From positions 59,367 to 123,366 of the forward strand of contig JAWODM010000014.1 of the NCBI GenBank assembly GCA_046483305.1: a stretch of DNA of 64,000 nucleotides, read 5' to 3'. A program made the position numbers and the translations under genes. Below are positions 10,008 through 51,040 of the stretch, one piece after another. Within the stretch, counting starts at the first letter, position 1, and every line of letters begins with the position of its first letter. The notes below the pieces were generated by a model. The model saw only the letters and a list, made by a program, of their open reading frames with translations, was not told the origin of the DNA and ran no database searches. Source of the DNA: Candidatus Krumholzibacteriales bacterium. GTDB taxonomy: Bacteria > Krumholzibacteriota > Krumholzibacteriia > Krumholzibacteriales > WJIX01.

Positions 10008-10033
10008 AATCCCCTGGAAAGGTTATTATTGAG

Positions 10034-13258: not shown

Positions 13259-13268
13259 GGGAGTCAGG

Positions 13269-14264: not shown

Positions 14265-14278
14265 GGAGGAGATAGAAT

Positions 14279-15154: not shown

Positions 15155-15210
15155 TCGAACCGGCGGCGCCGGCAGCCAGCCCGCCTCTTTCTGCAGGGAC
15201 AGATTCGGAT

Positions 15211-19100: not shown

Positions 19101-19487
19101 TATACCCTCTCCAGCGCTCTCGGCTACAGGAGAGGGCCCAACGCCCGTTTCTCGGTGGAATTCTCCGGGCAGGACAGGGAGGATTACCTCTCAGAGTCCA
19201 GGCAGAATTCGTATTCATTCAAACCTTCAGCCAGCATCTCTCCGGCCGGGGATATAAACATAAGGACTTTCTACAAGTTTACCTACACAGATGTGAAGAA
19301 CGACGGGGGGCAGCCCCTGTTCTTCCTGGAGGAGGGGGTAAGGCAGGACTGGAACATCTTCAGCCGTTACCAGGTGGGAAAGCACATAAGCGTGGGACTT
19401 AACTATACCGGCAGAAGGGAAAAGGATTTCAGGGAGGAGGTGAAGACTGTCCATGCGCTCAAGGTTGAAAGCAGGGCTTATTTTTAG
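16119..19487 (+). CDS. large (1122 aa) hypothetical outer-membrane-type protein
   Basis: Cleavable signal peptide. Composition rich in alternating R/E/D/G/S/Y typical of beta-barrel proteins. C-terminal ESRAYF with terminal Phe. Start overlaps the upstream stop (ATGA). No family recognised by eye. Confidence 0.5.
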   Translation: MKRYSLSIIIMVVFTLAPLRANPLAEPGRGPVSSKSFILSPGQSRIDTGISFIKPGSDSLIIDGREIERGAGYRISSLSGVIILNNPAEGGEMAILYYSRFHFPFPPVMARRFPGTGEAPFRTPLADTAALFSSKKINPYRLNVSASKSVGFSVGSARGVGIDQSLRVTIAGKLAEDLEVKAFLSDDDLPVQPEGNTEELKRLDRISINIRSRHTEVKLADFASSLDWSVFSSFDRELRGGEITVKAAGQRFMTGGGIAKGRFETINITGREGVQGPYQLLSARRFNGVIVIPGSESVYLNGKLMKRGQENDYVIDYNRASVAFTERVPVTDDSEIVIEFQKGESNYERNTFMGGWSAPLREGAVNIRAFFLTESDDKDSPLAGEFTDEEISALAAAGDNPDSAFASGVEKTDEGGSGYIYSEADSYFVFVESGAEYQLDFYKAAGGGDYDTDGFSSSGELKYRYVGEGEGDYRIGRRLPLPERKDLVAVSADAGSDHLFLRAEGDFSRHDRNTLSGLDDGDNNGAAYTVEGGLRGFDFLESTLNLKGSYSSLESSFAAPDRVRRAYFYRNWNLEGVELEGRENISGLKLNWERDRWWKLEGSYSRLTRTGGTSAGRGRAEGELGNPENRGLRFQWLRTENSDRRKREFALAKGVFAMWKLVPGITLDRERYRSFSPAGADTGRYYRQGKIFLGTRDLKGFDAGISFNRRLTDNLRESGGAWFRARENDEIILNGSYSGGTRMIDFFLSHRESDEIESGSSSTFDLARIKYRDSYRPLGVATDIGYRITSGEERRRERAVIFVGENQGDYDEEGNEVGQKRGDYMLVYIPGTGTEGVRTVELNWKLSFGDGIRGFGSMTDEDGGLFNLIKKNVSLDQIFSLSEKSTTDELFRLYIMDPDLLQRDDVTVEGYNRLRQEWNFLRDVRKYNLGFTFSREDREDNRTEGASSSSYLREMRLKSEYLPVPSLSISLEGTRTDRSSISDNRAVQSYDILAYTLSSALGYRRGPNARFSVEFSGQDREDYLSESRQNSYSFKPSASISPAGDINIRTFYKFTYTDVKNDGGQPLFFLEEGVRQDWNIFSRYQVGKHISVGLNYTGRREKDFREEVKTVHALKVESRAYF

Positions 19488-21126
19488 TCTGATGCTGTTT
19501 GCGCCGTCAGTTCTGAATGCCGGGCGGGCGGCCAGGGTGGAATATGCCGGTATCGACCTTCTTGATACCGGAAAGCTGAAGGCGGATTCCTACCTGAAGG
19601 AAGGCGGGCGGTTTTCCGATTCGCTTCTTTCCATGGAATTGCAGAGGCTCGATTCGCTCTATTTCAATATAGGTTACCCCGGAGCGGTTATTGATGCCGA
19701 TACCGCCGCCAGTGGCGATCAGTACCTGATAACCATATCGGTAAGCGAAGGCGGGCAGGCCAGTTTCGGTAAAGTCGCTGTTGCGGGTGATAACCCTGTT
19801 GAGGAAAAGGGAGGGATTTACAGCCTGAAGCGGGGCGAAGATTTCCTCCCCGGGAGAGTGGAAGAGGCCATGAAATTTACCCTTTTCTCGATGAACAGGG
19901 CCGGATTCCCCTATGCCCAGGTATGGATCACCGGATTCGACTATATCCGGGCCGATAATTCGGTGGATATATCCTTTTCCGTAGTTACCGGCGAGCGGAT
20001 GACGGCCTCGGAGGTGGTATTCGAAGGGATTTCATCCACCGACACCTCCACCGCCATGATAGCTTCGGGTTTCAGGAAGGGCAGGGAGTATGACGAAAAG
20101 ATGCTGATCTCGGTCAGAAACCGCCTGGAGGCGAGCGGCCTTTTCGAAGAGGTTCTCCCCGGAAGGGTAATCCGCAGGAGCAAAGGGGAGGTTGCCCTGG
20201 TGTTTCCGGTCAGGGAACAGGAGAGAAGAAACCTCTTCCGGGGGGCTTTCGGATTCTCCCGGAAGCAGAACGATGAATACGAAGTTAACGGGAATGTGGA
20301 ACTTGAGCTTAATAATATAGCGGGGACGGGCAGGGGGGCTGAATTCACCTGGATAAACGACGGCAGGGATTATTCCAGGACAGAGGTGAGCTATCTGGAA
20401 CCGTTTCTTTTCTCCAGGAACCTGTCCCTGGAAACCTCCCTGAGGCAGATTGTCAGGGATTCCCTCTACAATATGAGCAGCGGGAGCCTGAGGTTCAGGG
20501 CGCCTTTCGGCCCGGCCGGATTCAGGCTGTCGGTTTCCGCCTCCGCTGACAGGATCGTAATCCAGAACGACGTCGATCTGAGCAGGAGTTTCAGGCAGAG
20601 ATACGGCCTGGGCCTTGAGAAGAGTAGCGGTTCATATCTGAGGTTCGAGACCTCGCTGGAGGGAGGGCTCAGGAACAGTTACTACAAATTCCGGGATGAC
20701 GAGTCTGTCTGGCAGCTGCTGTATAACATTGAGGCCACCTCTGAGATGCCGACTTTCCGGGGCCAGAGCGCTTATCTCAGGGTGGTATCCGAGGGGATAT
20801 TCAGCGGTGGAGAAATACACCCGGCGGAGCTGTTTTCGGTGGGGGGAGCGAGATCGATCAGAGGCTACCGGGAGAACCAGTTCAGGGCCGAGCGGGCGTC
20901 CTACCTCAATCTGGAATACCGGCTGGGAAGAACCAGCAGGGTATTCCTGTTCAACGATACGGGGGTTATTTACCGAGAGGATACCGGCTGGGAGTTCAGG
21001 AACGGCGCAGGATTCGGCATAAGGTCGGTATCAGCGGTAGGAATCATCGAGCTGAGCTTCGGAATGGCGGAGCGCTTCTCCCTGGACGCCGCCAGAATAC
21101 ATGTGTCGCTGGTGGAGAGTTTCTAG
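19453..21126 (+). CDS. Omp85-family (BamA/TamA-like) outer-membrane protein with POTRA domains
   Basis: Signal peptide. N-terminal POTRA-like repeats. C-terminal surface-antigen barrel with FSVGGARSIRGYRENQF motif and terminal VESF. Overlaps the upstream gene by 35 nt. Confidence 0.65.
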   Translation: MRSRLKAGLIFSLMLFAPSVLNAGRAARVEYAGIDLLDTGKLKADSYLKEGGRFSDSLLSMELQRLDSLYFNIGYPGAVIDADTAASGDQYLITISVSEGGQASFGKVAVAGDNPVEEKGGIYSLKRGEDFLPGRVEEAMKFTLFSMNRAGFPYAQVWITGFDYIRADNSVDISFSVVTGERMTASEVVFEGISSTDTSTAMIASGFRKGREYDEKMLISVRNRLEASGLFEEVLPGRVIRRSKGEVALVFPVREQERRNLFRGAFGFSRKQNDEYEVNGNVELELNNIAGTGRGAEFTWINDGRDYSRTEVSYLEPFLFSRNLSLETSLRQIVRDSLYNMSSGSLRFRAPFGPAGFRLSVSASADRIVIQNDVDLSRSFRQRYGLGLEKSSGSYLRFETSLEGGLRNSYYKFRDDESVWQLLYNIEATSEMPTFRGQSAYLRVVSEGIFSGGEIHPAELFSVGGARSIRGYRENQFRAERASYLNLEYRLGRTSRVFLFNDTGVIYREDTGWEFRNGAGFGIRSVSAVGIIELSFGMAERFSLDAARIHVSLVESF

Positions 21127-21163
21127 TAACGGTAAATTCCCGGATGACAGTGTTGGCAGGTAA

Positions 21164-21191
21164 ATTAATTACAGGAAATTCGATTTTTCTG
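21164..21191 (+). repeat. 28-nt direct repeat, copy A (attaattacaggaaattcgatttttctg)
   Basis: About 25 of 28 positions match copy B at 30874-30900 in the same orientation. Copy A lies 38 nt after the Omp85 stop. Confidence 0.5.
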
Positions 21192-21770
21192 TCAATGAGG
21201 GAAGTGTGGGCAGGAGGATTTGCAACCCCATTTATGCTGTGCTTCGCCGCTTTTATCCTCATTTCAGGCATGTTCCGACACCTTAAAGCAAAATTGGCTG
21301 TGGTATGGGGGAAGTAAGGCCGAATCAGATAATAACTCATCCAACTCTCCTCGAGAGATGACACGGTTTACAATGATCCGGGCCGCTTCAGCCGAGCGGT
21401 GAGCCGCAGAGCCGGGGAGGAGGGTGATAGCGGAGAGGAGGTGGGTCACTGTATGTATTTCCAGCCGATGCGTGCGCGGGATTCTATCAATCACCACCGG
21501 ATCGGTGATAAAGGAAATAATCCTCATTTTGCCGCCGTATTTGACACGCGGCAGTGGGTCATTCTTCCAGACTTCAGCTGTCAGCTAAGCCCGGCATATC
21601 AATTATGAAAAAAAACCAATTCGTTTCGAGAAAAGAATAAAGTAGCGCGCAATAGTTGGGTTTTCGCTTTTTGAGGGGCCATAATAATTTCCCGCAATCA
21701 TTTTCTGGTGTTTGGTTATATGGTTTCCCTTTAAACAGCAGGGTATATGGAGGCGGCATATCTGTGGATG

Positions 21771-22250
21771 CTACCGCCCCCCGTAGATTTTCTTCAGAAA
21801 GCCCCAGCTCACCTCGGCGCTTACCGTGCCGCTAGCGGGAGACACCTCGGCAACGTCGATGAAATCGCACGGCACGGCCAGTGTTCCCTGGCATACACGG
21901 GTGAAGGTGTGCCCCGCGACAAGGATCTCCTTGTCGATATACTGGCTCAGGTTTATCGAATCCGCCTCAAGGTAAAAGCTCTGTCGCGGCTCTCGCGCTT
22001 CGAGGTAATACTCTCCGCAAAAACAGATGCAGATCTCGGGCTTCGGCTGAAAGCGCAGATATCCTTTGGAGATGCAAATAGTATCATCACCGTTTATTAC
22101 TATTGACCGGTAATCTCCGGCGCCGGCTTCAGGCAATTCTGGTTCCCCGGACCTTACTCCATCGCCCGGTCCCAGAATCGATAACAGCAGCAGAGAGGTT
22201 GCTATCAGGAATACTTTCCGCAGATTGGTTATCGAATTGTAATCGCTCAT
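21771..22250 (-). CDS. hypothetical small secreted Cys-containing protein (159 aa)
   Basis: Signal peptide/hydrophobic N-terminus and a CxC...CxxC-type Cys cluster. Sits 63 nt downstream of the S8 protease gene on the same strand. Confidence 0.45.
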   Translation of the reverse strand: MSDYNSITNLRKVFLIATSLLLLSILGPGDGVRSGEPELPEAGAGDYRSIVINGDDTICISKGYLRFQPKPEICICFCGEYYLEAREPRQSFYLEADSINLSQYIDKEILVAGHTFTRVCQGTLAVPCDFIDVAEVSPASGTVSAEVSWGFLKKIYGGR

Positions 22251-22272
22251 TTCAATCTCACCCCGGTAAAGT

Positions 22273-22304
22273 CCGGGAGCCTCCCAAAGCGCGGAGGCTC
22301 CCGG
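22273..22304 (-). other. GC-rich 12-bp stem / 8-nt loop hairpin in the protease-to-small-gene spacer
   Basis: ccgggagcctcc (22273-22284) is a perfect reverse complement of ggaggctcccgg (22293-22304). No following U-tract on either strand. Confidence 0.4.
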
Positions 22305-22313
22305 TAATTGTTC

Positions 22314-25300
22314 TCACCTCAATAGAACCATCTTCTTCGTTATCTTGACATCTTCGGTCACGAACCTGGCGAAGTAGATGCCTGTCGCGACCGCCGAGCC
22401 GTTGTCATTAGTCCCTTTCCACTGGAACTCGTGAATTCCGGGTTCCTTCATCCCCTTGAAGACCTTTTTGACCAGTCTTCCTTTCACATCGTAGATCTTC
22501 AGGGACACCTGCCGCTGATCTCCGGCCGGCAGTCCGAAACGGATAGTGGTGACAGGGTTGAACGGGTTCGGATAGTTCTGCCACAGCGTGAACTTTTCGG
22601 GTATCACGTTGTCGCTGTCGCCGACCGCTTCTCTGCCGTCGGCATCCATGGTGATGGTACCTGAAGCTGTGGCCATCCAGTCGAGTGCGCGGTCGAGGAT
22701 CTCCGCACGCCGCGTCTCTTCCTGGATGTAAGTGAAGTTGAAGGTGAAGTAGACCGAAACATGATTGGGACCGATGTACCTCACCGCTGCCGCTGAATCC
22801 GGCCCGGAGGGGGTCATCGGCCACAGTTTCGAATCCCACTCTTTACCTTCCTTGCTGTAGAAGGCGGACATTTCCTCCCTCGATTCGAACATGTCAAGAG
22901 ACGATCCTGTTCCGCTCCACTTGTAAATTACCTGGCCTCCCGAATAGGTGGTGGACAGTTTGACCTCGTCGGGATAGGAGCCCTGAATTGTAAAGGTCTC
23001 GCCGGCGCCTATGGGATCTCCAGGCGTGCTCGAGATCTGTCTCCAGCCCGGGTCGTCCTTGACGTACGCGGTTCCGGTGTACTGCTCCATCCAGGATCTG
23101 GCTGTGGATCCATAGGAGAGGTCTCTGCCGAGGAACCAGATCTTCTGACTTTCACCATCGGAGGCGCTCAGGAAAGCTCCCAGGGTGTCCATCTGGGTGG
23201 TGCTGAGATACCAGGACTCGTCCACTATGACTGCGTCATAGGAATGAAGTATGGCGGTCGCAGGAACTCCAAGTTCGTCCCAATCCCAGATATCCGCGGT
23301 CCGTCCAGCGGCGGTGAAGGCCTGCTGGAAGACTTCGGGAGCGGTATGACCGGCGCCTCCAAGCAGCACCAGGATATCGCCAGAAGGCATGATGCCGAAC
23401 TCATAGTAAGAAGCGGGAGCTCCGGCCGGATCGAACGACGTGTTCGCGCCGTCGTCCTCCGCCTCCAGATACAGTCTTATCCTGGTTCCGGAAGCCTGCC
23501 CGGGGATGTCGCCTGAATACTCGTCGGGATTACCGGTCGGCGACATGGCCACCGCATTCCAGGTGCCGCCCTCGTTGATGCTGTAATGCAGCTGCACCGA
23601 AGAAACTTCGCCCAGGGCGTCGATCACTTCCGTGGTAACAGTGTACGGGCCTGTAGTATCGAACGTTGAAGATGGCACCGTGGTCGACACAAAGTTGGGA
23701 CCTTCTGTGTCTTCGGCGCCCATTATGCTGACGTCATCGATATACCATCCGACCTTGTTGACCCACGAATCGCTTCCGAAATGGAACCTGATGATGACCT
23801 CCTGTCCCTTGTAGGGTGTAAGGTCGCAAGTCACCTGGTGCCAGTTATCATTGTTGTATCCGGTGAAGCACGGTTCGTTCGGTATGCCCGCGTTGTAGCT
23901 CTTGGCCGTTCCGTTATAACCGATATCCGGAGTGAGTATCGACCAGGTGCTTCCTCCGTCGGTGGAAATCTTTATGTTCCCTCCGTCGTAGTTGGTCTCG
24001 ATATAGTACCACTGCCAGAAGGTCAGCATAGCGTAGGAGCTGCCCGCTGGAACTATGACCTCGGGCGTCTCCAGCTTGGAGTTCGAGCTGGAAGAATAGG
24101 TGCCGCCGACCTGTGTCGCCCAGAGGTTGACCCCTGAATTAGCTCCGTCGGGTCCGGTGGTGGGTTCGCCCCATTCCCAGTCGCCTGTCGAGCTGAATCG
24201 GCCGTCAGTAGCTTCGAAATCCCAGGTGTAATAGTCCACGATCTCGAAGGAATGGTATCCGGATTCCGGTTCTCTTGCCGTATTGGGAACGGCCGCTGCA
24301 TCCCGAGCTCTTATATAGTAGTTGAACACATCGCCCAGAGCGGCCGGTCCGGGAATATCTCCCGTGTAGAGGTCTCCTCCGGCGTTTGTCATGGTGATGG
24401 TAGTGTTGGCGCCGCCGTTCTTGTTGTATGTGAGGAATACCCCGGCTGGATCGACACCCACATTGTCGGTCACAGTAGCCTCTACCGTGTAGGGGCCTGT
24501 CTCGTCCGGCGTATTGGGCAGTGGATAGTGGACTATCTCCGGAGGAGTTATATCCGCTGTCACCTCGAACGAATGCTGTACATCCGGCGCTCCCGACGGA
24601 TGGAAGCTGGTGTTTCCGTCGGTGTTGGTGGCGCTGATGTAGTAATGTACGGTAGTGCCGTAGGATTGCGGAGGTATATCCGCTGAGTATTCGTCCGGGT
24701 TGGCCGTGGGGTTCATCTGCAGGCTAACCGGTCCCGCACCGGCGTCGTAGATCAGGTTGATCCGGTTGGGGTCCAGATACTCGGAGTACACGTTGGCGGC
24801 TACGGTGTAGGTGCTCAAGGTGTCTTCGGTATCATGAAGCGGTTCGTGCAGGATCTCCGGGGCGGCGAACCACTTGAGTGTCCTGTCGATGATGCCCGCC
24901 CTTCTCCACGGTTCCTGGATGTAGTTGAAGTTGAAGGTGAAGTACACAGAACGATATTTATCGCCGTTGTACTTGATTCCGGCGGCCGCGTCTATGCTTT
25001 GCGGATCGTGCGGCATCACGCCGTCCCATTCCTTTCCGGCCTTCTGGTAGGTCCCGGCAATCTCCTCTCTGTCAAGGTACGTACCTTCTCCGGTGTACTG
25101 GTAGACAAGCACGCCGCCCGGATAGGCCTCGCTGCGTTGAGTCTCGTCAGGATACGAACCGGAGATTACGAAGGTCTCATTGGCTCCGATCGGTTCGCCG
25201 GGCGCTCCGGTGAGTTCGCGGTATCCGGGATTGTCCTGGACGTAGGCCGCCCGCATGTACTGTTCTATCCAGGGCCTGGTCGAGGAGTAGAATCCCAGAT

Positions 25301-28300
25301 CGCGTCCCAGCAGGAACAGCTTCTTCTTGGCTTCGCTGGTTCCGCTCTCCAGGAAGGCCGCCAGATCGTTCTGCTCGGTGGTGGTGAGACTGCCCGTTTC
25401 GTCGAGTACGATCACCTTGTAAAGACCAAGCTGTTCCGGAGTTAGCCATCCCTGATCGTAGTGGTTCCAGTAATCGGCCTGGTGGCCGTTGGCTTGGAGC
25501 GCCTCGCGGAACATCTCGAGAGGCGTTCCGTAGTTTGTCCCGATCATAACCAGCACGTCCGCCGAAGGCAGTATGGCGAATTCGTGCGTATCATCGGGCG
25601 CGCCGGCGGGATCGAAGCTTACGTTCTCCTCCGAGGAGGTATCCACCGCCTTGATATAGAATTTGACCTTGGTCCCGTTCGCCTGGCCGGGTATGTCGCC
25701 GGACCATTCGTCTCCGGAAACCAGAGTCATGGGGATTTCCATGAAAGAGGCTCCATCGTCCACCGAGTAGAAGATGGATACACCCGCCACGTCCGAAAGC
25801 GGATCCATAACGTGAGTTGCCACGGTGTACGGCCCGGTATTGTCGAAGGTGCTGGGAGGCACTTCCGTACCGCTTATGACCGGCGGAAAATTATCCGCCG
25901 ACGAACTTCTGACCATCACGTCGTCGATGTACCAGCCAGGTTTGTAAACGCTTCCGTCGCTTCCGAAGTGGAAGCGGAATATCACCTCTGATCCGGCGTA
26001 TGAGGAGACGTCGAACAGCTCCTTCTGCCAGAACTGGTTGTCATACCCGGTAAAGCAGTCCTCTCCGGGTATACCGGCGTTTCCGCTTCGCGCGGTTCCG
26101 TCATACCCTCCCATGGGGGTGAGTACCGTCCAGGTCTCTCCTCCGTCGGTGGAGACCTTGACGTTACCGCCGTCGTAATTTGTTTCAATGGAGTACCAGT
26201 GCCAGAACGACAGCATGGCGTAAGGCTGGCTGGCATCCAATGTAATCGGGATAACATCCAGAGTGGCGTTGGACGAATTTGGATAATTGTCTTCCAGGCC
26301 GGTAGCCCAGACGTTCTCTCCCGAATTCGCTCCGCCTGGTCCGGTGGTGGGGGGACCCCATTCCCAGACATCGCCGCTCTGGACGAATCCGCCGTCGTCG
26401 GGCTCGAAATCCCACAGGAAGTACTCCACTATCTCGAAGCTGTAGGTCCCGTTTTCGGGAACTCGTGCGACGTTGCCGTGATACGATTCATCCATAGCCA
26501 GGATGTAGTAATCATAAATGTCCCCGACCTCGGAAGGCCCTGGGATCGCTCCCTGGTATGATCCGTCTCCCATCAGAGTCATCGACTGCCTGTGGAACAT
26601 GCCTCCGTTCTTCGAGTACATCAGAAAGACCGATTCGACTCCCAGGTTGTCCTCGATAAGGGCTTCCACATAGTAAGGCCCTTTAAGGTTATTGGTGTCG
26701 TAATGCCTCTGGTGAGTAACGGCTGGAGCTTCTTCGTCCCAACCTACGGTGAAGGTATGGACGTTCACTGGAGCTCCGATCGGATCGGTTGTGGTATGCC
26801 CTTCAACGTCCGAAGCGGTCAGGTAATAGGCCACTTCCGTGCCCAGGGGCTGGGCCGGAATGCTGGCCGAATATTCATCTGGAACTCCGGTTGGTTCCAG
26901 TGGCACCGTAACCGGTCCCGCCCCGGCGTCGTAGATCAGGGCGAAGGTTGAGGGATCCAGATCAAAGTAGCTGGATGTTATGTACGCCGTGACCGGATAC
27001 GGGTCGGTGGTGTTCTCGGTGCTGCTGAGCGGAGTATGGGCGATATCCGGGTATCCCAGAAGCCAGTCCAGTATCCTTCCCATCATTCCGTGACGGTCGG
27101 CCTCATTGTCTATCGCTTCGAATCCGAAGGCGAAATAGACCAGCTTGTAGGTCCCGTTATCCACAGACAGGGCCGCCGTTCCGGAGCTACTGATGGAACC
27201 GGCTCCGACATCGCCTTTGGACATGTCGTGAGCGGAGACCGCTCCACTGGGAACCGCCTCATCATAGAAGAGAGCCGATATCGCCGGATAGACGGGATCT
27301 ATCTCGGAAGGATAGCCCTGGTTATTGGCTCCGTCGCCTCCCTCTATGCCGAAGGAGAATCCGGCGCCGACCGGGCTGCCTTCTGATCCGGCTACCCCGC
27401 CAAGCCCTACGTCGTCCTGCACGTATTCGGCGTGGAGGTAATTAGAGTAAAAGTCCTCATCCTTGATATCGTATCCGATATCCTGGCCTGATATGAAGAG
27501 CCGTCCTCCCCCATCCAGATACGCCGCGATATTGGACTGATCATCGGCTGAAAGCGTAGTGGTGTAATCGTTTCCTGTCAGCCAGACCACCGATTCGAAC
27601 ATCGACATCTCGGCGGCGCCGGGCGGAGTCGATACTGTCAGGTAAGACCTTCCAGCCGCCGTGATGGCGTCCTCGTACCAGGTCTGGAACGAACCGCCTC
27701 CGTCGTCATCGACCAGGAGGACCTGGGCCGCTCCAAGCTGGATGTCCTGAGTGGTGATCATGCCTTCCAGGACTTCCACTCCGGTAACTGTAGTGGCCGG
27801 ATAGGGGAAAACGGGCGAATAGACCAGGTCGTAGGTGCCCACCGGCAGCGTTATGCTGTATTCGCCTGTTACCGGGTCGGTGCTGCTCCAAACTACCGCT
27901 TCTCCCGCCAGCCTGACGGAAATATCCGCTTCTATTCCTCCTCCTGAATTCTCGTCGGTTACGTACCCGGCGATAGTGCCGGAAGGAAGCTGATTCAGCG
28001 TAACATCAAAGGTCGTCGTCTCGTCGGCCGTTATTGTGACAATATCCGTCCCCGTCTCGTATCCGAACCTTGAGATCTCTATCGGATGGCTTCCGGCGAC
28101 TGCCTGCATACTGAATGTTCCGTCCGGACCGGAGTATACTTTCTGTCCGGTGTCGGTCAGTATTATCATCGCGTTCTCGACGGTTCCTCCCACCGAACTG
28201 TATATGGTCCCCTCCAGGGTTCCCACGCCGGAGAGCGCCGCGGTCACAGCGGCGTAGGCATTGACCCGCCCCCAGCCGTAGGTGTTATCCATTCCTGGAT

Positions 28301-29678
28301 CGCCCAGTTCCAGGGCGGTCTGAGCGACCAGCTGCTTGGCAATCTCGACATCGATGGTGGGATTCGCCTGATACATCAGGGCGGCTGTTCCCGCCATATG
28401 GGGAGCCGCCATGGAGGTTCCGCTCCATTCGAATCCCGCTCCGTACCACTGCCAGTCGCCGCCCGGAACGGAGGAATAGATCTTGACTCCGGGAGCGGAG
28501 ATATCCGGCTTGGTGTACGTTCCGACATACGGCGGATCGTTCCATGTTACCGGCCCGCGGCTGGAGAAACTCGCGATCACGTCAGAGCTATCCGTCGCTC
28601 CGACTCCGAAAGCGCTGGGAACGTTACCCGGACTGCCCGTGGTGGCGGACCCCGGCCCCGCGTTACCTATCGATATCGCGGGAAACACGTTGGCAGCTAT
28701 CATGTTATCAACAGGCGTAATCATAGCCGAATGGGTCCCGGTCGCGCCCAGCGACATATTCACGATATCGCATCCGTCATCTGTGGCGGGGTCGCCGTCG
28801 GGATCGATGATCCATTCCATCCCGCCGATGACCTGGGCGAACGTTCCGCTTCCGCCGGGGAGGACCAGGGCGTGCATCAGCTGAGCGCCCGGAGCCACGC
28901 CGATATCATACCCGCTGGCGTTGCCGCCTATCATGGTTCCCGAGGTATGAGTGCCGTGTTCGTCGGAATCGTGAGGCACCGAACCCGGGACTATATTTCC
29001 GTCCGAGTCGAACTCCGCCCATCCTCCCGGATAGGTTGGATCCGACGGATTACTGGTCACCATCTTCCCTGAAAGATCGGGATGGCTTATGTCCACTCCG
29101 GTGTCGATTCCTCCGATAACAACTCCGGTTCCGTTCAGTCCGTAACTCGACCAGACCTGTTTTGCTCCGATCTTATCAATCGAGTCCCAGAGCTGGTTCT
29201 GGCTCTGTTGCAGAAGAGGCCTGCTGCTTTCCTCTTGCGGGGGAAGCGTGACTGTGAAGTTCTCGAACACTTCCAGCACGTCGGGCCTTTCGGCGAGCTG
29301 TGTGATTACCTCTGGTTTGGCCCGGACCAGCACCAGGTTATCCAGCCAGAACTGTCTTATCTTCTTTACTTTGGGGGATACCCCGGTTGACTTGAGAAAC
29401 CTGACAAGTTGCGCCTGGCTTCTGCGCTTGGTATCCCTCAGCTTGTTCATCACTGCCGGCCCGTTGCCTCTGATCAGCTGGATGTCGGCAGTTTCCTTCA
29501 TCTTTACTATTGCGGTTACTTCACCTGTAGCTCCGGCCGCCTCTATCTGCGTCCTGAGCTTCGGGCTGATCCTGACCTTTTTGCCTTCCTCGGCGTCCGC
29601 CGAATTCAAGGAAGGGAGCACCAGGAGCAGGACCAGAAAAAGCGCCGCACAGCTGAAACGTCTTATACTTGAAAACAT
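22314..29678 (-). CDS. giant (2454 aa) subtilisin-like S8 serine protease, multidomain T9SS cargo
   Basis: Signal peptide. S8 catalytic triad context: Asp (GGIDTGVD), His (HGTHTSGT) and Ser (GTSMAAPHMAG), roughly nt 28256-29171. Two carboxypeptidase-regulatory-like beta-sandwich segments. Two ~730-aa tandem modules each containing a MAM/choice-of-anchor-J-like segment (WEWG...ANSG...FWHWYSIETNYDGGNVKVSTDGG). C-terminal T9SS sorting domain (YPNPFNP...KIYDVKGRLV...GIYFARFV, nt 22314-22586). Confidence 0.8.
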   Translation of the reverse strand: MFSSIRRFSCAALFLVLLLVLPSLNSADAEEGKKVRISPKLRTQIEAAGATGEVTAIVKMKETADIQLIRGNGPAVMNKLRDTKRRSQAQLVRFLKSTGVSPKVKKIRQFWLDNLVLVRAKPEVITQLAERPDVLEVFENFTVTLPPQEESSRPLLQQSQNQLWDSIDKIGAKQVWSSYGLNGTGVVIGGIDTGVDISHPDLSGKMVTSNPSDPTYPGGWAEFDSDGNIVPGSVPHDSDEHGTHTSGTMIGGNASGYDIGVAPGAQLMHALVLPGGSGTFAQVIGGMEWIIDPDGDPATDDGCDIVNMSLGATGTHSAMITPVDNMIAANVFPAISIGNAGPGSATTGSPGNVPSAFGVGATDSSDVIASFSSRGPVTWNDPPYVGTYTKPDISAPGVKIYSSVPGGDWQWYGAGFEWSGTSMAAPHMAGTAALMYQANPTIDVEIAKQLVAQTALELGDPGMDNTYGWGRVNAYAAVTAALSGVGTLEGTIYSSVGGTVENAMIILTDTGQKVYSGPDGTFSMQAVAGSHPIEISRFGYETGTDIVTITADETTTFDVTLNQLPSGTIAGYVTDENSGGGIEADISVRLAGEAVVWSSTDPVTGEYSITLPVGTYDLVYSPVFPYPATTVTGVEVLEGMITTQDIQLGAAQVLLVDDDGGGSFQTWYEDAITAAGRSYLTVSTPPGAAEMSMFESVVWLTGNDYTTTLSADDQSNIAAYLDGGGRLFISGQDIGYDIKDEDFYSNYLHAEYVQDDVGLGGVAGSEGSPVGAGFSFGIEGGDGANNQGYPSEIDPVYPAISALFYDEAVPSGAVSAHDMSKGDVGAGSISSSGTAALSVDNGTYKLVYFAFGFEAIDNEADRHGMMGRILDWLLGYPDIAHTPLSSTENTTDPYPVTAYITSSYFDLDPSTFALIYDAGAGPVTVPLEPTGVPDEYSASIPAQPLGTEVAYYLTASDVEGHTTTDPIGAPVNVHTFTVGWDEEAPAVTHQRHYDTNNLKGPYYVEALIEDNLGVESVFLMYSKNGGMFHRQSMTLMGDGSYQGAIPGPSEVGDIYDYYILAMDESYHGNVARVPENGTYSFEIVEYFLWDFEPDDGGFVQSGDVWEWGPPTTGPGGANSGENVWATGLEDNYPNSSNATLDVIPITLDASQPYAMLSFWHWYSIETNYDGGNVKVSTDGGETWTVLTPMGGYDGTARSGNAGIPGEDCFTGYDNQFWQKELFDVSSYAGSEVIFRFHFGSDGSVYKPGWYIDDVMVRSSSADNFPPVISGTEVPPSTFDNTGPYTVATHVMDPLSDVAGVSIFYSVDDGASFMEIPMTLVSGDEWSGDIPGQANGTKVKFYIKAVDTSSEENVSFDPAGAPDDTHEFAILPSADVLVMIGTNYGTPLEMFREALQANGHQADYWNHYDQGWLTPEQLGLYKVIVLDETGSLTTTEQNDLAAFLESGTSEAKKKLFLLGRDLGFYSSTRPWIEQYMRAAYVQDNPGYRELTGAPGEPIGANETFVISGSYPDETQRSEAYPGGVLVYQYTGEGTYLDREEIAGTYQKAGKEWDGVMPHDPQSIDAAAGIKYNGDKYRSVYFTFNFNYIQEPWRRAGIIDRTLKWFAAPEILHEPLHDTEDTLSTYTVAANVYSEYLDPNRINLIYDAGAGPVSLQMNPTANPDEYSADIPPQSYGTTVHYYISATNTDGNTSFHPSGAPDVQHSFEVTADITPPEIVHYPLPNTPDETGPYTVEATVTDNVGVDPAGVFLTYNKNGGANTTITMTNAGGDLYTGDIPGPAALGDVFNYYIRARDAAAVPNTAREPESGYHSFEIVDYYTWDFEATDGRFSSTGDWEWGEPTTGPDGANSGVNLWATQVGGTYSSSSNSKLETPEVIVPAGSSYAMLTFWQWYYIETNYDGGNIKISTDGGSTWSILTPDIGYNGTAKSYNAGIPNEPCFTGYNNDNWHQVTCDLTPYKGQEVIIRFHFGSDSWVNKVGWYIDDVSIMGAEDTEGPNFVSTTVPSSTFDTTGPYTVTTEVIDALGEVSSVQLHYSINEGGTWNAVAMSPTGNPDEYSGDIPGQASGTRIRLYLEAEDDGANTSFDPAGAPASYYEFGIMPSGDILVLLGGAGHTAPEVFQQAFTAAGRTADIWDWDELGVPATAILHSYDAVIVDESWYLSTTQMDTLGAFLSASDGESQKIWFLGRDLSYGSTARSWMEQYTGTAYVKDDPGWRQISSTPGDPIGAGETFTIQGSYPDEVKLSTTYSGGQVIYKWSGTGSSLDMFESREEMSAFYSKEGKEWDSKLWPMTPSGPDSAAAVRYIGPNHVSVYFTFNFTYIQEETRRAEILDRALDWMATASGTITMDADGREAVGDSDNVIPEKFTLWQNYPNPFNPVTTIRFGLPAGDQRQVSLKIYDVKGRLVKKVFKGMKEPGIHEFQWKGTNDNGSAVATGIYFARFVTEDVKITKKMVLLR
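22668..27038 (-). repeat. internal tandem duplication inside the S8 gene, two ~2.19-kb units (aa 881-1610 and 1611-2337)
   Basis: Collinear motifs recur at a constant ~730-aa offset: IYDAGAGP 916/1644, WEWG 1105/1834, FRFHFGSD 1234/1964, FTFNF 1581/2311. The unit boundary is near nt 24848/24849. Confidence 0.75.
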
Positions 29679-29733
29679 TTTCTTTCCTTTCTGTGCTGAG
29701 CGCCGGCCTCGCTACCGCGCGCCGGCTGCTTTC

Positions 29734-30504
29734 TTAGCTCTTTTTCGTCTTGACGTCCTTGGTCTTTTTCAGGATCTCGAAGTAATTTATCTCAAAATCT
29801 TCGTACTCTCCGTAGATGCACTCTCCATCCGGGCTCGTGTCGGGGTCGTCGTAAGACAACACTCCCCGCGCCCAGACCTTGGTCTCTAGCCGTTCGTTGC
29901 CTTCGGACATTCCATAAAGCAGAGCGGCATCGGGAACCAGGAACATGGTCATATAACTGATTTTCAATACAGCTTCATCCGTCGGGAAATAATCCTGCAG
30001 ATTGATGGACTCGCAGATCATCTTCTCGTTCTGCCCCCAACTATTGTCCTGGTTCCAGTCCACCCAGAGTGAGACAGTAAGGTCCTTTTCGAATTCGCTG
30101 GCTAGCCGGCTGCTGGCATTGGGTATGTTAATATCCCACCATACCAGAGCCCATTTATTGGGAAGCCAGAGATTGGCGTTCACGAACCAGATTCCGTCGC
30201 AGTCATCCGCGGATGCCCCCAGCTGTTCAATTCCCTTTTCCTTCATGTCGATCGTGGGATATGGATCAGGAGCGGGACCGGGAGTGATCCCGGGGGGCAG
30301 GATCTCATCTTCTGATACAGTCTGGATCTCGCCGGACTGCAGAAACGTCTGCAGATCAATTACATTTGAAGGCAAGTTCTCCTGGATCAGATAGATGGAT
30401 TTTCCTGCCGGTTCCTCCAGGGCCATTTCCTGGGTGTGGAGGATGGAAAAGGAAAGAAGCAGACAGAGGAGGCACATGAACAGTAAGCTCAGTTTGTTGC
30501 GCAT
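29734..30504 (-). CDS. hypothetical secreted protein (256 aa), possibly GEVED-like
   Basis: Signal peptide. Trp-rich central region, GEYEDFEINYF near the C-terminus and a Lys-rich tail. Sits 55 nt upstream of the S8 gene on the same strand. Confidence 0.4.
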   Translation of the reverse strand: MRNKLSLLFMCLLCLLLSFSILHTQEMALEEPAGKSIYLIQENLPSNVIDLQTFLQSGEIQTVSEDEILPPGITPGPAPDPYPTIDMKEKGIEQLGASADDCDGIWFVNANLWLPNKWALVWWDINIPNASSRLASEFEKDLTVSLWVDWNQDNSWGQNEKMICESINLQDYFPTDEAVLKISYMTMFLVPDAALLYGMSEGNERLETKVWARGVLSYDDPDTSPDGECIYGEYEDFEINYFEILKKTKDVKTKKS

Positions 30505-30840
30505 CCTGTCACCCTCTTTCTACCGGGTCTCTTTCGAGACCGGTGATTTTGTTTCGAAAGTTCTACTTTCAGCCGTCTCTTTCTTCACCTCCTTTCACGG
30601 TGGGGATACTACGGCCGGGAGACATCGCCGCACATGTAATATCTCTGTTACTGCCGATTTAGTTTCAGGTTTTTTGGCGAAACGATTCTGTAAGGATTCA
30701 ATTAATCACAGCATGCAGCACAGTGTTAATGTCCCTTGATGCGGATTGTCAGATGTTTGTTTCCTGATGAGAGATAACAGAGCTAGTACTCGGCGCAGTC
30801 CCTGGTGCACTTTTCGCTTTCCCTGATTATACGGGAACCG

Positions 30841-30869
30841 ATTGTAAAGTAGAATTTAGTAAATGTCAA
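30841..30869 (-). promoter_or_regulatory. sigma-70-like promoter on the minus strand (TTGACA - 17 nt - TACAAT) facing the 256-aa/S8/159-aa operon
   Basis: The reverse complement of 30841-30869 reads ttgacatttactaaattctactttacaat. A second TATAAT (reverse complement of 30815-30820) lies just downstream. Confidence 0.45.
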
Positions 30870-30873
30870 CTGG

Positions 30874-30900
30874 ATTAATTACAAGAAATTTGATTTCCTG
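30874..30900 (+). repeat. direct repeat, copy B (attaattacaagaaatttgatttcctg)
   Basis: Matches copy A at 21164-21191. Abuts the minus-strand -35 element. Confidence 0.5.
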
Positions 30901-31113
30901 AACAGCATGTATTCATTAACGGGAATAATAATTGTCATTAGCACTGCCGGGTCCGGCAATCCCCGGTTTTCACTGCAAGGATGGTGAAATGTATAAAGAA
31001 GATAACGTAAACGTTATATCGAGCCTGTTCAATTGCTTGAATCATGTCTTGATCCCCTGCCCTGCCACCTTGACTCCGCCCGTTTACGGGATTATAATTA
31101 TATGTTATGACAA

Positions 31114-32442
31114 TTGGAAGGAGAGGAATTGACTGAATTTCAGAAAGCGATAAATGGCGAGATAACTCCCGCTCTCAAAGAGGTAGCCGGGACTGAATCT
31201 GTGGAAGAGGAAAAGCTCCGCAGACTGGTCGCGGAAGGCAGGGTAGTGATCCTGGGGATGCTGCGGAAGCACTGCCGGATGATAGGTATCGGGGAGGGCC
31301 TTACCACCAAGGTTAATACCAATATAGGGACCAGCCCCGATCACGACGACCTTGAGATCGAGCTTGAAAAGCTCCAGGTTTCGCTGAAGATGGGCACCGA
31401 CGCGGTGATGGACCTTTCCACCGGCGGTGATATCGACCGGATCAGGCGGACCGTGCTGGATCAGTGCACCGTGCCGGTAGGGACAGTTCCGGTGTACCAG
31501 GCCGCCGTGGAGGCCTCAGGGCGGGGAGAGTCCATAACTGAATGCAGTGTCGACAATTTTCTTGATGTAGTAAGGCGTCATGCCGAGGACCGTGTGGATT
31601 TTCTGACCATACACTGCGGGCTGGTCTCCAGGCTGGCCAGAGAAGTGGCCAGGACCAGGGTGGCCGGGGTGGTCAGCCGGGGAGGATCTCTTCTTATGCA
31701 GTGGATGGCCAGGAACAACAGGGAAAATCCGTATTACGAATATTATGACTCTCTGCTGGATATCTGCGAAGAGCATGATGTGGCAATCAGCCTGGGCGAC
31801 GGGCTGAGGCCCGGCTGCCTGGCAGATGCCAGCGACAGGCCGCAGATAGGCGAACTGATGATGATAGGCGAACTGGTTGAGAGAGCCAGGGAACGGGGGG
31901 TGGCTGTATTCGTGGAAGGGCCCGGCCATGTACCCATGAACCAGATACAGGCCAACGTGCAGATCCAGAAAGCTGCCTGCGGCAATGCCCCCTTCTACGT
32001 GCTGGGGCCTATAGTTACAGATGTGGCTCCCGGCTACGATCACATAACATCCGCTGTCGGAGGGGCGATCGCCGCCTGGCACGGCGCCGATTTCCTCTGT
32101 TACGTTACACCCGCCGAGCATCTTCGCCTGCCCTCGGTTAACGATGTCCGTATCGGGGTGATCGCGGCCAGAATTGCCGCTCATGCCGGGGATGTCGCCG
32201 CCGGCCTTCCGGGAGCGGAAGAATGGGACCGGGAGGTATCCGGAAAGAGAGCGGAGCTCGACTGGAAGGGATCGCTGGAGAAGAGCATGGATCCTGAAAG
32301 GGCGGAGGAGCTTTACGACAGATCGCCCGGCGGGGAAGAGGAGCTGTGCACCATGTGCGGGGAGTTCTGCGCGATACGTGGCACCAGAAAGAGCAGGGAA
32401 GACTACCGGAAGGCCCGGGAAGCTGCGACGGAAAATAAATGA
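31114..32442 (+). CDS. thiC: phosphomethylpyrimidine synthase
   Basis: TKVNTNIGTSPDHDDLEIELEKL, DAVMDLSTGGDIDRIRR and C-terminal CTMCGEFCA (Fe-S CxxCxxxC-like) are typical of ThiC. TTG start at 31114, or at 31129 after GGAAGGAGAGG. Confidence 0.9.
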   Translation: MEGEELTEFQKAINGEITPALKEVAGTESVEEEKLRRLVAEGRVVILGMLRKHCRMIGIGEGLTTKVNTNIGTSPDHDDLEIELEKLQVSLKMGTDAVMDLSTGGDIDRIRRTVLDQCTVPVGTVPVYQAAVEASGRGESITECSVDNFLDVVRRHAEDRVDFLTIHCGLVSRLAREVARTRVAGVVSRGGSLLMQWMARNNRENPYYEYYDSLLDICEEHDVAISLGDGLRPGCLADASDRPQIGELMMIGELVERARERGVAVFVEGPGHVPMNQIQANVQIQKAACGNAPFYVLGPIVTDVAPGYDHITSAVGGAIAAWHGADFLCYVTPAEHLRLPSVNDVRIGVIAARIAAHAGDVAAGLPGAEEWDREVSGKRAELDWKGSLEKSMDPERAEELYDRSPGGEEELCTMCGEFCAIRGTRKSREDYRKAREAATENK

Positions 32443-32505
32443 ACGGCTGACCGGCTGAACTGATGTTTGAAAATTATTCCAGTTGATATACAGGGGGCGG
32501 TGTGA

Positions 32506-34833: not shown

Positions 34834-35021
34834 TTGAAGATATTCTTCGGCGCTGTCCGGCCGCCATTTAAATCTATGTTTTTATTATATGATTTGTTAA
34901 CATTCATGAAAACCTTCTGTATGGGGGGATCAGAAACAGCTGACAGGCCGGACTGCTGTCGCCCCTGCGGCCGGCCTCCCGCCAGGTTCAGAGACAGATT
35001 GATTCCGGAGGTGATAAGTTT

Positions 35022-36683
35022 ATGAGTTCAGTAAATATAAGAGCTCCCAGAGGGAGCGAGATAAGCTGCAAGGGCTGGTTTCAGGAAGCGGCCCTGAGGA
35101 TGCTGATGAACAACCTGGACAGCGAGAACGCAGAGAACCCAGATGAACTGGTAGTATACGGCGGTACCGGCAAAGCCGCCAGAAACTGGGACTGTTATCA
35201 TGCCATAGTCAGAGAGCTGAAGAATCTTGAGAATGACCAGACCCTGCTGATACAGTCCGGGAAACCGGTGGGTGTCTTCGATTCCCATGAAGGCGCTCCC
35301 CGGGTCCTGATCGCCAACTCTCTGCTGGTTCCAAGGTGGGCTACCTGGGAACATTTCTGGGAGCTGGAGACCAAGAACAAGATGATGTACGGCCAGATGA
35401 CGGCCGGCTCATGGATGTATATCGGAACCCAGGGGATACTCCAGGGAACTTACGAGACCTTAGCAGAATGCGCCAGGAAGCACTTCGGGGGAGACCTCAG
35501 GGGGAGGTTCGTTCTTTCCGGCGGGCTTGGCGGGATGAGCGGCGCGCAGCCCCTGGCGGTTACCATGAACGGAGGGGTGTGCCTGATAGTGGAGGTTGAC
35601 GAGAAGCGGATCCGCAAAAGACTGGATACCAGGTACCTGGACGTGATGGAGACAGATCTGGACAGGGCTCTTTCCAGAGTGGACCGGGCGGTCGAAAAAA
35701 AGGAGCCGCTTTCGGTCGGCCTTCTCGGCAATGCCTCCGATGTGTTCAGAGAGCTCGCTGACAGGGGTATAATACCTGACGTGGTTACCGATCAGACCTC
35801 AGCCCACGACGCCCTTAACGGATACATTCCAAGCGGTTACGACGTGGACGAGGCCGCCGAGCTCAGAAGGAAGGATCCGGACAGGTATGTGAAAGAGGCG
35901 ATTGAATCGATAGTCGTTCATGTTCAGGCGATGCTCGATTTCCAGAAGGAAGGGGCGATAGTCTTCGATTACGGCAATAATATCCGGGGCCAGGCCAGAG
36001 AGGGAGGGCTGGAAAACGCCTTCGATTTCCCCGGTTTCGTTCCCGCCTTTATAAGGCCGATGTTCTGTATAGGGAAGGGGCCTTTCCGCTGGCTGGCCCT
36101 CTCCGGCAGGGAAGAGGACCTTTACAGGACCGATGACCTGGTGCTGGAGCTTTTCCCGGAGAAGGAATCACTGGCGAGATGGATTAAGCTGGCCCGCGAA
36201 AAAGTGGCGTTCCAGGGCCTTCCCGCCCGCATCTGCTGGCTGTCATACGGAGAAAGAGAGAAGCTGGGAGTGGCCATGAACGATCTGGTGGCCAGCGGCG
36301 AGATTTCAGCTCCCATTGTAATCGGAAGGGACCATCTGGACAGCGGTTCGGTGGCTTCCCCCTTCCGGGAAACAGAGAGTATGAAGGACGGCACCGACGC
36401 AGTGGCGGACTGGCCGATTCTCAATGCTCTACTGAACGCGGTTAACGGCGCGGCCTGGGTATCGGTGCACCACGGAGGAGGCGTGGGTATGGGCCTTTCC
36501 ATCCATGCGGGGCTGGCAGTGGTGGCCGACGGGACCGAAAAAGGGCGTGAAAAGCTGATAAGGTGCCTGAGGGGAGACCCTGGCACAGGGATTGCACGAC
36601 ACGCTGATGCAGGCTATGAAATAGCCGTTAACAAGGCGAAAGATGCGGGAATAAACATCCCAATGCTTGAAGAGAAAAGCTGA
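35022..36683 (+). CDS. hutU: urocanate hydratase
   Basis: Full-length collinearity with urocanase ([53 protein letters not shown]). Confidence 0.9.
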
Positions 36684-36779
36684 TTGAAGAGATGATTTTT
36701 TTTCAGGCCTTTCGTTTATTTAAGTTATGCATTTTGCTTGAGTTAACTGCTTATTGTTTCATTATGCAAGGAGTGGCGC

Positions 36780-50980: not shown

Positions 50981-51003
50981 GATCAGTACAAGTTGACTTT
51001 CGC

Positions 51004-51038: not shown

Positions 51039-51040
51039 GA

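Follow-up and report, generated by a model that had tools for sequence, protein, structure and literature searches.

Background

Integration hotspots are known from the comparative genomics of horizontal transfer as variable regions located between conserved core genes. Direct repeats are a familiar boundary of integrated DNA: Xer-integrated elements, for example the gonococcal genetic island, are flanked by dif-like 28-bp direct repeats. The dif site itself is 28 bp long, with a 6-bp centre between two partly symmetric 11-bp arms, and lies at the replication terminus. The usual target duplications of transposons are shorter than 23-28 nt. A short AT-rich sequence next to a promoter can have a regulatory role instead, as in the UP element, an AT-rich stretch at -40 to -60 through which the alpha subunit of RNA polymerase increases the activity of sigma-70 promoters.

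We analyzed a stretch of 64,000 nucleotides from a Candidatus Krumholzibacteriales bacterium (hereafter the window, meaning this whole stretch of DNA) in which a 9.7-kb block of minus-strand genes occupies the interval, or slot, between an Omp85-family gene and thiC and is bracketed by two copies, A and B, of a short direct repeat. The sequencing run SRR31818007 contains a contig identical to that of the window. The slot resembles an integration hotspot in having conserved syntenic flanks and at least four different gene contents in relatives, and it differs from one in that its content here is a conserved operon of the lineage, apparently relocated, with no foreign composition and no mobile-element genes. 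As in the islands of tyrosine integrases with their attL and attR sites, imperfect direct repeats of ~25 nt bracket 9.7 kb that is missing from the relatives' site, but no integrase, tRNA target, compositional signature or empty site with a single complete copy was found here. With Xer/dif elements the block shares a repeat of ~28 bp, its direct orientation and the lack of an integrase within the element; unlike them, the motif as read in the sequence has no 11-6-11 dyad structure, and cumulative GC skew climbs steadily from one end of the window to the other, so that the window is not a replication terminus. A dif-like site was rejected for the missing arm symmetry and the missing terminus. 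Copy B is like a sigma-70 UP element in position and AT content only, being AT-rich at -41 to -67 of a near-consensus promoter, whereas its sequence is not conserved with the homologous promoter of L009 and a second copy, 9.7 kb away, is left over.

Results and discussion

The minus-strand operon

The original prediction described the block as three genes and as the only minus-strand coding in the window. The three genes proved to be real, and the other long minus-strand ORFs that we tested have no Pfam match and overlap well-supported plus-strand genes. Together they form a self-contained, conserved operon of a GEVED protein, a giant S8 peptidase and a protein of ~160 aa. The first gene (29734..30504, minus strand) encodes a 256-aa protein with a Pfam GEVED domain and a signal-peptide-like N-terminus; a protein of 252-258 aa precedes the S8 gene in L009, L010, L027 and L028, with a GEVED match in L009, L010 and L028 and homology in L027. 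The second gene (22314..29678, minus strand) encodes an S8 serine peptidase of 2454 aa in which Pfam identifies Peptidase_S8, two InhA-like_MAM modules, CarboxypepD_reg, FlgD_ig and Por_Secre_tail. The FlgD_ig and Por_Secre_tail matches, at residues 2369-2451, constitute the C-terminal sorting domain by which a type IX secretion cargo is recognized, and PorU-like and PorV genes are present in the window at 5000-10007. Full-length orthologues of the peptidase, with 56-84% identity, were found in sequences labelled Krumholzibacteria, Latescibacteria, TA06 and Eisenbacteria. The third gene (21771..22250, minus strand) encodes a 159-aa protein with an N-terminal hydrophobic segment that is homologous, at 39-41% identity, to the genes that follow S8 in L027 (163 aa, E 2e-25) and L028 (162 aa, E 4e-24); P0220 and P0221 are further homologues. 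This protein has no Pfam or NCBIfam family, and its AlphaFold2 model, built from a 3-sequence alignment, was unusable (pLDDT 36). The order GEVED then S8 is found in L009, L010 and L011, and in L027 and L028 the two genes are followed by the 162-163-aa gene and then by Fur, so that relatives hold the same trio at another address, beside a Fur/rubrerythrin cluster.

The regulatory and non-coding parts of the operon are conserved as well. A promoter scan found the operon's own sigma-70 promoter, TTGACA-17-TACAAT, at 30841..30869 on the minus strand, with 11 of 12 positions matching the consensus, and L009 has identical hexamers with identical spacing ~325 nt upstream of its GEVED gene. The 5' leader that follows (30505..30840, minus strand) is ~335 nt long and can be aligned with L009 and L010 over its last ~130 nt; promoter hexamers and leader length are therefore common to the window and L009. 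Between the S8 and 159-aa genes, the terminator scan placed a hairpin with a 12-bp stem (22273..22304, minus strand) that is kept in L029, as read by eye. Homology with L029 extends past the 159-aa gene to window position 21601 (81% over 68 nt) and defines a conserved operon tail of ~170 nt (21601..21770, minus strand). The tail contains a promoter-like site, TCGAAA-16-CATAAT (21629-21602); the L029 version of the site is TTGACA-16-CATAAT.

The slot between Omp85 and thiC

The conserved left flank of the slot is a gene for an Omp85/POTRA-family outer-membrane protein (19453..21126, plus strand; Pfam POTRA, ShlB and Omp85) that closes a cluster associated with type IX secretion, and this side is syntenic to the stop codon in L004, L005, L007, L008, L012 and L013. 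The right flank starts with the conserved thiC promoter region (31042..31113, plus strand; TTGACT-17-TATAAT at 31070-31098), from which point onward the window is 81-87% identical to L007, and continues with thiC itself (31114..32442, plus strand; Pfam ThiC_Rad_SAM, E 1.7e-181), whose synteny extends to L004 and L005. Collinearity between the window and L004 spans 9447-21126 on the left (~11.7 kb) and 31113-39384 on the right (~8 kb).

Between these flanks the slot is hypervariable, with other genes in every related genome that we fetched and at least four gene contents of the same interval. The cargo is an alpha/beta-hydrolase in L007 and L012, an HNH gene in L004 and an FG-GAP type IX secretion protein in L005; the slots of L006 and L013 each open, at the same position, with a minus-strand gene that is cut by the contig end. 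L004 and L005 encode an identical 557-aa Omp85 protein but carry different cargo, and the gene contents of the slot include two alleles within one species. A comparison with related genomes for an empty site with one repeat copy was part of the original prediction. In none of the relatives does the slot contain the block, and it is filled there with other genes. The sister species shows no more than ATTATTTAC at the corresponding position, and no empty site with one complete motif copy was present among the relatives examined.

The block is compositionally native. GC3 of its three genes is 0.63-0.69 versus 0.55-0.76 in the flanking genes, and GC, GC3 and synonymous codon usage are all within the flanking-gene range; the compositional difference between 21.2-30.9 kb and its flanks that an acquired island might have carried is absent. 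Identity to the nearest relatives is 84% for S8 and 85% for the flanking Omp85, and from this agreement between the two sequences the inheritance of the operon looks vertical. No integrase or recombinase is encoded in the three genes or in any spacer ORF, no tRNA or tmRNA was found in the 64 kb by ARAGORN or Rfam, and no transposase was found in or beside the block, which does not have the features of a transposon or IS element. No sign was seen that it can still move. The proposal of an inserted island is thus upheld as far as insertion relative to the relatives and repeats at both edges are concerned, and it fails as regards a foreign island with att remnants; recent capture of foreign DNA was probably not the route by which the operon came into the slot.

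The repeat pair

The repeat has the consensus ATTAATTACA[G/A]GAAATT[C/T]GATTT and is located on the plus strand at 21164-21186 and 30874-30896, and the presence of two copies in the same orientation is borne out by the sequence. Copy A (ATTAATTACAGGAAATTCGATTTTTCTG; 21164-21191, plus strand) lies at the left junction of the block. Copy B (ATTAATTACAAGAAATTTGATTTCCTG; 30874-30900, plus strand) lies at the right junction and precedes the -35 hexamer of the operon by 4 nt, covering about -41 to -67 of the operon strand, as expected from the earlier observation that it abuts a minus-strand TTGACA/TACAAT promoter. The copies are identical at 21 of their first 23 nt and at 24 of 28 with a 1-nt indel, a figure that replaces the earlier "about 25 of 28". 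The motif contains a dyad, GAAAT-N3-ATTTC, that is imperfect in copy A. The two copies fold differently and have no common fold, and a known RNA at the motif was rejected, Rfam giving nothing at gathering thresholds and noise at permissive E-values.

There is no third copy of the motif in the window at ≤3 mismatches and no further copy at ≤6 mismatches in 214 kb comprising the window and related loci. Within the window GAAATNNNATTT is confined to copies A and B (3 matches, two of which are both strands of copy B, versus 0.76 expected). Pattern scans returned 2 matches in a collection of species-representative genomes and 13 in the JGI metagenome collection, with exact matches to 20-21 specified bases of the motif. 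They include a coding region in a Bacteriovorax genome and contigs of 20-37% GC, and the source genome is not among them; being unrelated AT-rich DNA with no similarity in the flanks, they were treated as chance, and the motif was rejected as a widespread element. A generic promoter element, the outcome named beforehand as contrary to the island, was not seen in the 214 kb of related DNA examined.

The statistical weight of the pair depends on the comparison that is made. In a window-wide self-comparison the A/B pair ties with two other 21/23 pairs, both in coding DNA, and among matches between different intergenic regions of the window it ranks first. Windows shuffled in 500-nt blocks have a mean of 0.83 pairs at or above the A/B score. 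Markov shuffles of the two flanking spacers never reach 21/23 (0/2000), and the gapped local alignment of the two spacers scores 19 versus a null of 12.2 +/- 1.4, a score reached by 0/1000 shuffles. Because a shuffled window holds ~0.8 such pairs and the spacer-specific p is ~1e-3, non-randomness rests on location and not on similarity alone. The gapped alignment yields the 23-mer alone, with no longer duplication around it, and the best inverted match between the spacers (11.5) is at null level.

Junctions and spacers

Downstream of the Omp85 stop, the window is homologous to the sister species as far as ATTAATTAC inside copy A, and the BLAST alignment with L012 extends to window position 21172. 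Over the 46 nt after Omp85 this homology is weak (~60% identity) and is significant in the anchored test only: anchored global alignment to L012 scores 11 versus a null of 3.5 +/- 1.6 (p ~5e-4) and that to L007 gives p ~0.02, whereas the unanchored local p is 0.08. On the other side, homology with the L009 promoter reaches the -35 hexamer and goes no further, stopping 4 nt short of copy B. Since homology ends within copy A and promoter homology ends 4 nt from copy B, the copies are positioned on the insertion junctions. As a candidate for ancestral homology on the right side, we considered a weak match of the sister spacer to the window that falls inside the operon leader (p 0.03-0.09), and it was not used. 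A partial parallel is found in L004, where the HNH cargo is flanked by a diverged duplicate of ~57 nt of thiC-upstream DNA (score 15 versus a null of 10.5, with 2/300 shuffles reaching the score). No flanking repeats were found around the operon in L027 and L028 or around the cargo in L005 and L007, and the repeats are therefore not a general property of either the operon or the slot.

The spacers on the two sides of the block are 644 bp (21127-21770) and 609 bp (30505-31113) long. They had been described as unusually long for this window; they are long but not unique, given a third spacer of 634 bp at 50981-51614. The left spacer opens with ancestral post-Omp85 DNA (21127..21173, plus strand), collinear with that of the sister species; from copy A to the conserved operon end it consists of orphan non-coding DNA (21192..21600, no strand assigned) for which no homology was found. 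This orphan DNA contains an 87-aa ORF (21264-21527, minus strand). Neither the ORF nor the left spacer has a Pfam, NCBIfam or plasmid tblastn match, and an exhaustive HMMER search with the ORF returned tandem-repeat artefacts alone and no true homologues; a suspected likeness to the C-terminus of an IS91-family transposase was rejected on the tblastn and HMMER results. As RNA, the left spacer has no Rfam match and its 644-nt fold is not unusual (z -1.2). A gene remnant was likewise rejected, because tblastn finds in the left spacer no Fur, DUF2400 (the gene after Fur in L027 and L028), serpin, hydrolase, HNH or FG-GAP. On the right, a genome-specific spacer extends from copy B to the thiC promoter region (30901..31041, no strand assigned) without similarity to relatives; a palindrome, ATAACGT-AA-ACGTTAT, can be read in it at 31002-31017. 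The three-hairpin element of L004 and L005 is absent from the window.

Origin of the repeat

The reading that we tentatively put forward as the best for the whole is that the repeat arose as a junction duplication when DNA recombined at a short sequence common to both partners. Within the lineage, the operon would have been relocated to the slot or brought there by recombinational replacement, and the inserted DNA would have entered the chromosome through a Campbell-type or short-homology crossover at a short AT-rich sequence that the two shared. The direct repeat of 23-28 nt would then be a by-product of the joining event, with one hybrid copy at each junction; the left part of copy A would be ancestral DNA from just after Omp85, and copy B, now upstream of the operon promoter, may serve it as an AT-rich upstream element. 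Several observations stand against a junction duplication. No relative has an empty site with one complete motif, the 21/23 similarity is a level reached ~0.8 times in a shuffled 64-kb window, the 410 nt at 21192-21600 have no explanation by homology, and nothing in the relatives corresponds to the 140 nt on the right of copy B. The weak homology after Omp85 and the lack of repeats around the operon in L027 and L028 and around the cargo in L005 and L007 likewise count against it.

One alternative is that two AT-rich stretches resemble each other by chance and that there is no meaningful flanking repeat. The pair was selected after inspection when the original prediction was made, it ties window-wide with two coding pairs, shuffled windows have on average 0.83 pairs that match at least as well, and exact matches of 20-21 bases turn up in unrelated AT-rich public DNA. 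We nevertheless consider chance somewhat unlikely, since no shuffle of the flanking spacers (0/2000 and 0/1000) reaches the observed match, no other pair of intergenic regions matches as well, and both copies coincide with homology breakpoints that were mapped independently. A shared regulatory site, either an AT-rich UP-like element or an operator built on the dyad, would have copy B act on the operon promoter and copy A be a second site, e.g., for transcription that runs out of Omp85 or for the orphan 87-aa ORF. The place of copy B relative to an 11/12 consensus promoter agrees with this, as do the AT-rich phased A-tracts that L009 also has upstream of its homologous -35 hexamer and the restriction of GAAATNNNATTT to the two copies in the window. 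The motif, however, does not occur upstream of the L009 promoter or, at ≤6 mismatches, in the 214 kb of related sequence. Beside copy A neither strand carries a credible promoter, this copy lies downstream of all genes on both strands, its dyad is imperfect and no regulator gene is adjacent. The shared operator that had been offered as the alternative to an island thus finds no support in conservation, and a regulatory origin is in our judgment unlikely.

Two further explanations invoke site-specific recombination. A protease island acquired horizontally by means of a site-specific recombinase, with the repeats as attL/attR remnants, would account for direct repeats of att-like length around a block that is absent from the slot in relatives. 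It is highly improbable in view of the native composition, of the absence of an integrase or recombinase in or beside the block and of any tRNA or tmRNA, and of an operon that is a conserved component of the lineage with an identity tracking that of the flanking genes; moreover, the copies are not identical, and the operon stands without flanking repeats in L027 and L028. It is also conceivable, though very unlikely, that the 27-nt motif is the recombination site of a recombinase-less operon cassette that is moved in trans, in which case the slot beside the type IX cluster (PorU, PorV and Omp85-like) would be a docking site that collects secreted-cargo genes, such as the S8 operon here and the FG-GAP gene in L005.

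Conclusions

We conclude that the block is a conserved secreted-protease operon in a variable slot, a case of ordinary genome plasticity and, most probably, not a mobile island. Such plasticity is hereby documented in a little-studied candidate phylum, where a conserved giant-protease operon can change its chromosomal address and where the interval next to the type IX secretion genes exchanges its gene content even among members of one species. If the repeat were a working recombination site, there would be a means of moving whole operons without an element-encoded recombinase. The conserved promoter, the long leader and the three-gene architecture together make the operon a defined unit for studying the expression of very large secreted proteases.

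The minus-strand operon and its control regions

The minus-strand block encodes, in order of transcription, a 256-aa GEVED-domain protein (29734-30504), a 2454-aa S8 peptidase (22314-29678) with two InhA-like MAM modules and, at its C-terminus, a type IX secretion sorting domain, and a 159-aa protein of no family (21771-22250). All three genes, as named in the original prediction, are real; the other long minus-strand ORFs tested gave no Pfam match and overlap well-supported plus-strand genes such as those for EF-G, RuvB, QueA and Tgt. Full-length orthologues of the S8 protein, about 2450 aa long, are numerous (56-84% identity) and carry labels that include Krumholzibacteria, Latescibacteria, TA06 and Eisenbacteria. 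The S8 gene is preceded by a GEVED gene in three related loci (L009, L010 and L011). Two others, L028 and the 4.1-Mb chromosome L027, have a GEVED-like gene ahead of S8 and, after S8, a 162-163-aa gene, next Fur and finally oxidative-stress genes. The proteins of 162-163 aa are homologous to our 159-aa protein (39-41% identity, E 2e-25 and 4e-24). Gene order in these relatives, together with this homology, makes the trio a conserved operon. L010 has, after S8 and in the place of the window's 159-aa gene, a serpin (8677-9927), which is a protease inhibitor; this is a hint that the protease might be modulated by the small gene downstream of it. The S8 gene also contains an internal duplication (22671-26443, period about 2187 nt, 72-80% identity), probably the two InhA-like MAM modules.

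The operon promoter, TTGACA-17-TACAAT, lies on the minus strand at 30869-30841, and L009 has identical hexamers and spacing about 325 nt upstream of its GEVED gene. The 5' leader is about 325-335 nt long (window 30505-30840, minus; L009 109-432; L010 1-279). Its last ~130 nt can be aligned among the three loci and contain a hairpin just before the ribosome-binding site; the leader has no Rfam match and may act in cis as a regulatory RNA. Between the S8 stop and the start of the 159-aa gene lies a GC-rich hairpin (22273-22304; 12-bp stem), which the related locus L029 (about 1184-1215) keeps with a changed loop; it may be an intra-operon terminator, attenuator or processing site. Beyond the operon, L029 homology (78% nucleotide identity) extends 170 nt past the 159-aa gene, to window position 21601. 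This stretch includes a promoter-like site (21602-21629), also conserved with L029, that in the window faces only orphan DNA with an 87-aa ORF (21264-21527, minus); it may be a promoter left stranded when the operon moved, one that served the next gene at the former address. The shared promoter and leader and the L029 tail homology indicate a transplanted unit of at least 21601-30869, and on these alignments the operon's own control regions move along with it.

A slot with variable contents

The operon occupies, on the minus strand, the slot between an Omp85-family gene (19453-21126, plus) and thiC (31114-32442, plus). The left flank (5000-21126) is a type IX secretion-associated cluster of a PorU-like C25 peptidase, PorV, an M6 secreted cargo protein, an NHL protein, a 1122-aa protein of no family and the Omp85-family gene; the right flank comprises thiC, a DinG-like helicase, hutU, hutI and a TPR protein. 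Both flanks are collinear with relatives, to which homology ends at the Omp85 stop codon and restarts about 70 nt before thiC. The relatives fill the slot with an alpha/beta-hydrolase on the plus strand (L007 and L012, Omp85 85-89% identical to ours), a 342-aa HNH protein on the plus strand (L004, 68%), or a 910-aa FG-GAP protein with a type IX secretion tail on the minus strand (L005, 68%). A minus-strand gene is cut by the contig end in L006 (68%), where L005 has the FG-GAP gene, and in L013 (73%), where it starts 18 nt after Omp85. Type IX cargo genes occur in two of the four identified states. Slot contents turn over within one species, since the Omp85 proteins of L004 and L005 are identical and their slot contents are different.

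Several smaller features were seen in this region. A ~105-nt three-hairpin element (RNA fold z -3.0), with no Rfam match and absent from the window, is conserved in the slot of L004 (11720-11830) and L005 (6040-6145), with the cargo on opposite sides of it: HNH to the right, FG-GAP to the left. L004 also has a 13/14 repeat, TTGACAGA[T/A]CAGAA, at 11813 and 13262. Only 15 nt separate the near-consensus thiC promoter from the start codon, and about 50 nt upstream of the promoter's -35 hexamer lies the perfect palindrome ATAACGT-AA-ACGTTAT (31002-31017). The Rfam search found no TPP riboswitch for thiC even at permissive thresholds.

The spacers flanking the block, 644 and 609 bp, had been called unusually long; the lengths are confirmed, and the ORF table gives a third long spacer of 634 bp (50981-51614). 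Two repeats lie in the latter: a perfect inverted one of 24 nt, at 51037-51060 and 51159-51182, and a direct one of 32-33 nt, at 51106-51137 and 51300-51332. Self-comparison of the window also found a near-perfect 25-nt palindrome (55233-55257) and a perfect one of 18 nt (63802-63819), both at gene ends and probably terminators, and a 42-nt direct repeat of 93% identity (44051-44092 and 45180-45221) between adjacent PilB-like and PilT-like T2SSE-family ATPase genes, probably a conserved paralogous motif or gene-conversion tract.

Origin of the flanking direct repeat

The repeat flanks the block on the plus strand as originally described. Copy A, on the left (21164-21191), reads ATTAATTACAGGAAATTCGATTTTTCTG and copy B, on the right (30874-30900), reads ATTAATTACAAGAAATTTGATTTCCTG; they are identical at 21/23 positions over the first 23 nt and at 24/28 with a 1-nt indel. 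No third copy was found in the window at ≤3 mismatches, and recurrence of the motif upstream of unrelated genes, named as grounds for refuting the original prediction, did not appear in 214 kb of window and related loci at ≤6 mismatches. A widespread conserved element is excluded as far as the public collections reach: all 15 matches there are to unrelated DNA, mostly AT-rich, whose flanks show no similarity. The motif is not supported as an RNA hairpin or terminator.

The similarity of the copies by itself proves nothing. All-against-all comparison of the window gave two other 21/23 pairs, both in coding DNA, and windows shuffled in 500-nt blocks held a mean of 0.83 pairs equal or better, so that chance resemblance is plausible on window-wide statistics. 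For a repeat flanking this particular block, p is about 1e-3 on spacer-specific shuffles (0/2000 Markov shuffles of the two spacers reach 21/23; their gapped local alignment scores 19 against a null of 12.2 +/- 1.4, which 0/1000 shuffles reach), and we regard chance as somewhat unlikely. The main argument for an origin in the insertion event is position. On the right, promoter homology between the window and L009 stops at the -35 hexamer (30869), and copy B, rightly described as abutting it, starts 4 nt beyond. On the left, collinearity with the sister species covers the first 46 nt beyond the Omp85 stop, a weak homology (anchored score 11 vs 3.5 +/- 1.6, p about 5e-4 with L012; not significant when unanchored, p 0.08) that stops inside copy A, after ATTAATTAC; the sister species has ATTATTTAC at this point, within the loop of what by eye is an apparent terminator hairpin. 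Because these homologies end near copy B and inside copy A, both copies coincide with independently mapped junctions of inserted DNA. We therefore tentatively read the repeat as a junction scar, at somewhat below an even chance: incoming DNA and chromosome would recombine where they share a short AT-rich sequence and would leave one hybrid motif copy at each end of the insert. The HNH cargo of L004 is a partly parallel case, flanked by a diverged ~57-nt direct duplicate of thiC-promoter-upstream DNA (11843-11899 and 13262-13320; score 15 vs null 10.5, reached by 2/300 shuffles). As weaknesses, the junction reading does not account for the 410 nt that separate copy A from the end of the conserved module, or for the 140 nt right of copy B. 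No relative has the empty site with a single complete motif that had been proposed as a check, and flanking repeats are absent around the operon in L027 and L028 and around the cargo in L005 and L007.

That the copies are a regulatory site, as alternatively proposed, seems unlikely to us. Copy B does lie at -41 to -67 of a strong promoter, a position at which AT-rich A-tracts are found in L009 as well, but conservation of the promoter does not extend to the motif, and copy A has neither a promoter nor a gene on which to act. A classical att-flanked foreign island is very improbable. Neither integrase, transposase, tRNA nor known RNA lies in or beside the block, and the 87-aa ORF, the sole sizeable one of the left spacer, finds no true homologue in a set of 1.84 billion representative proteins. 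The suggested comparison of composition with the flanks places GC, GC3 (0.63-0.69) and synonymous codon usage of all three genes inside the flanking-gene range, and att-like remnants find no support here. The nearest S8 relative is in L011 (84%) and the nearest Omp85 relatives are in L007 and L012 (85-89%); from the adjacent ENA accession numbers of their samples we infer one sister population that keeps the operon outside this slot. These observations fit an operon that was inherited vertically and changed its address, not one imported recently. Of the inserted protease island, then, the insertion stands and the foreign origin does not: what lies in this variable slot is a conserved operon, and the case adds a new example to a kind of genome plasticity that is already known.
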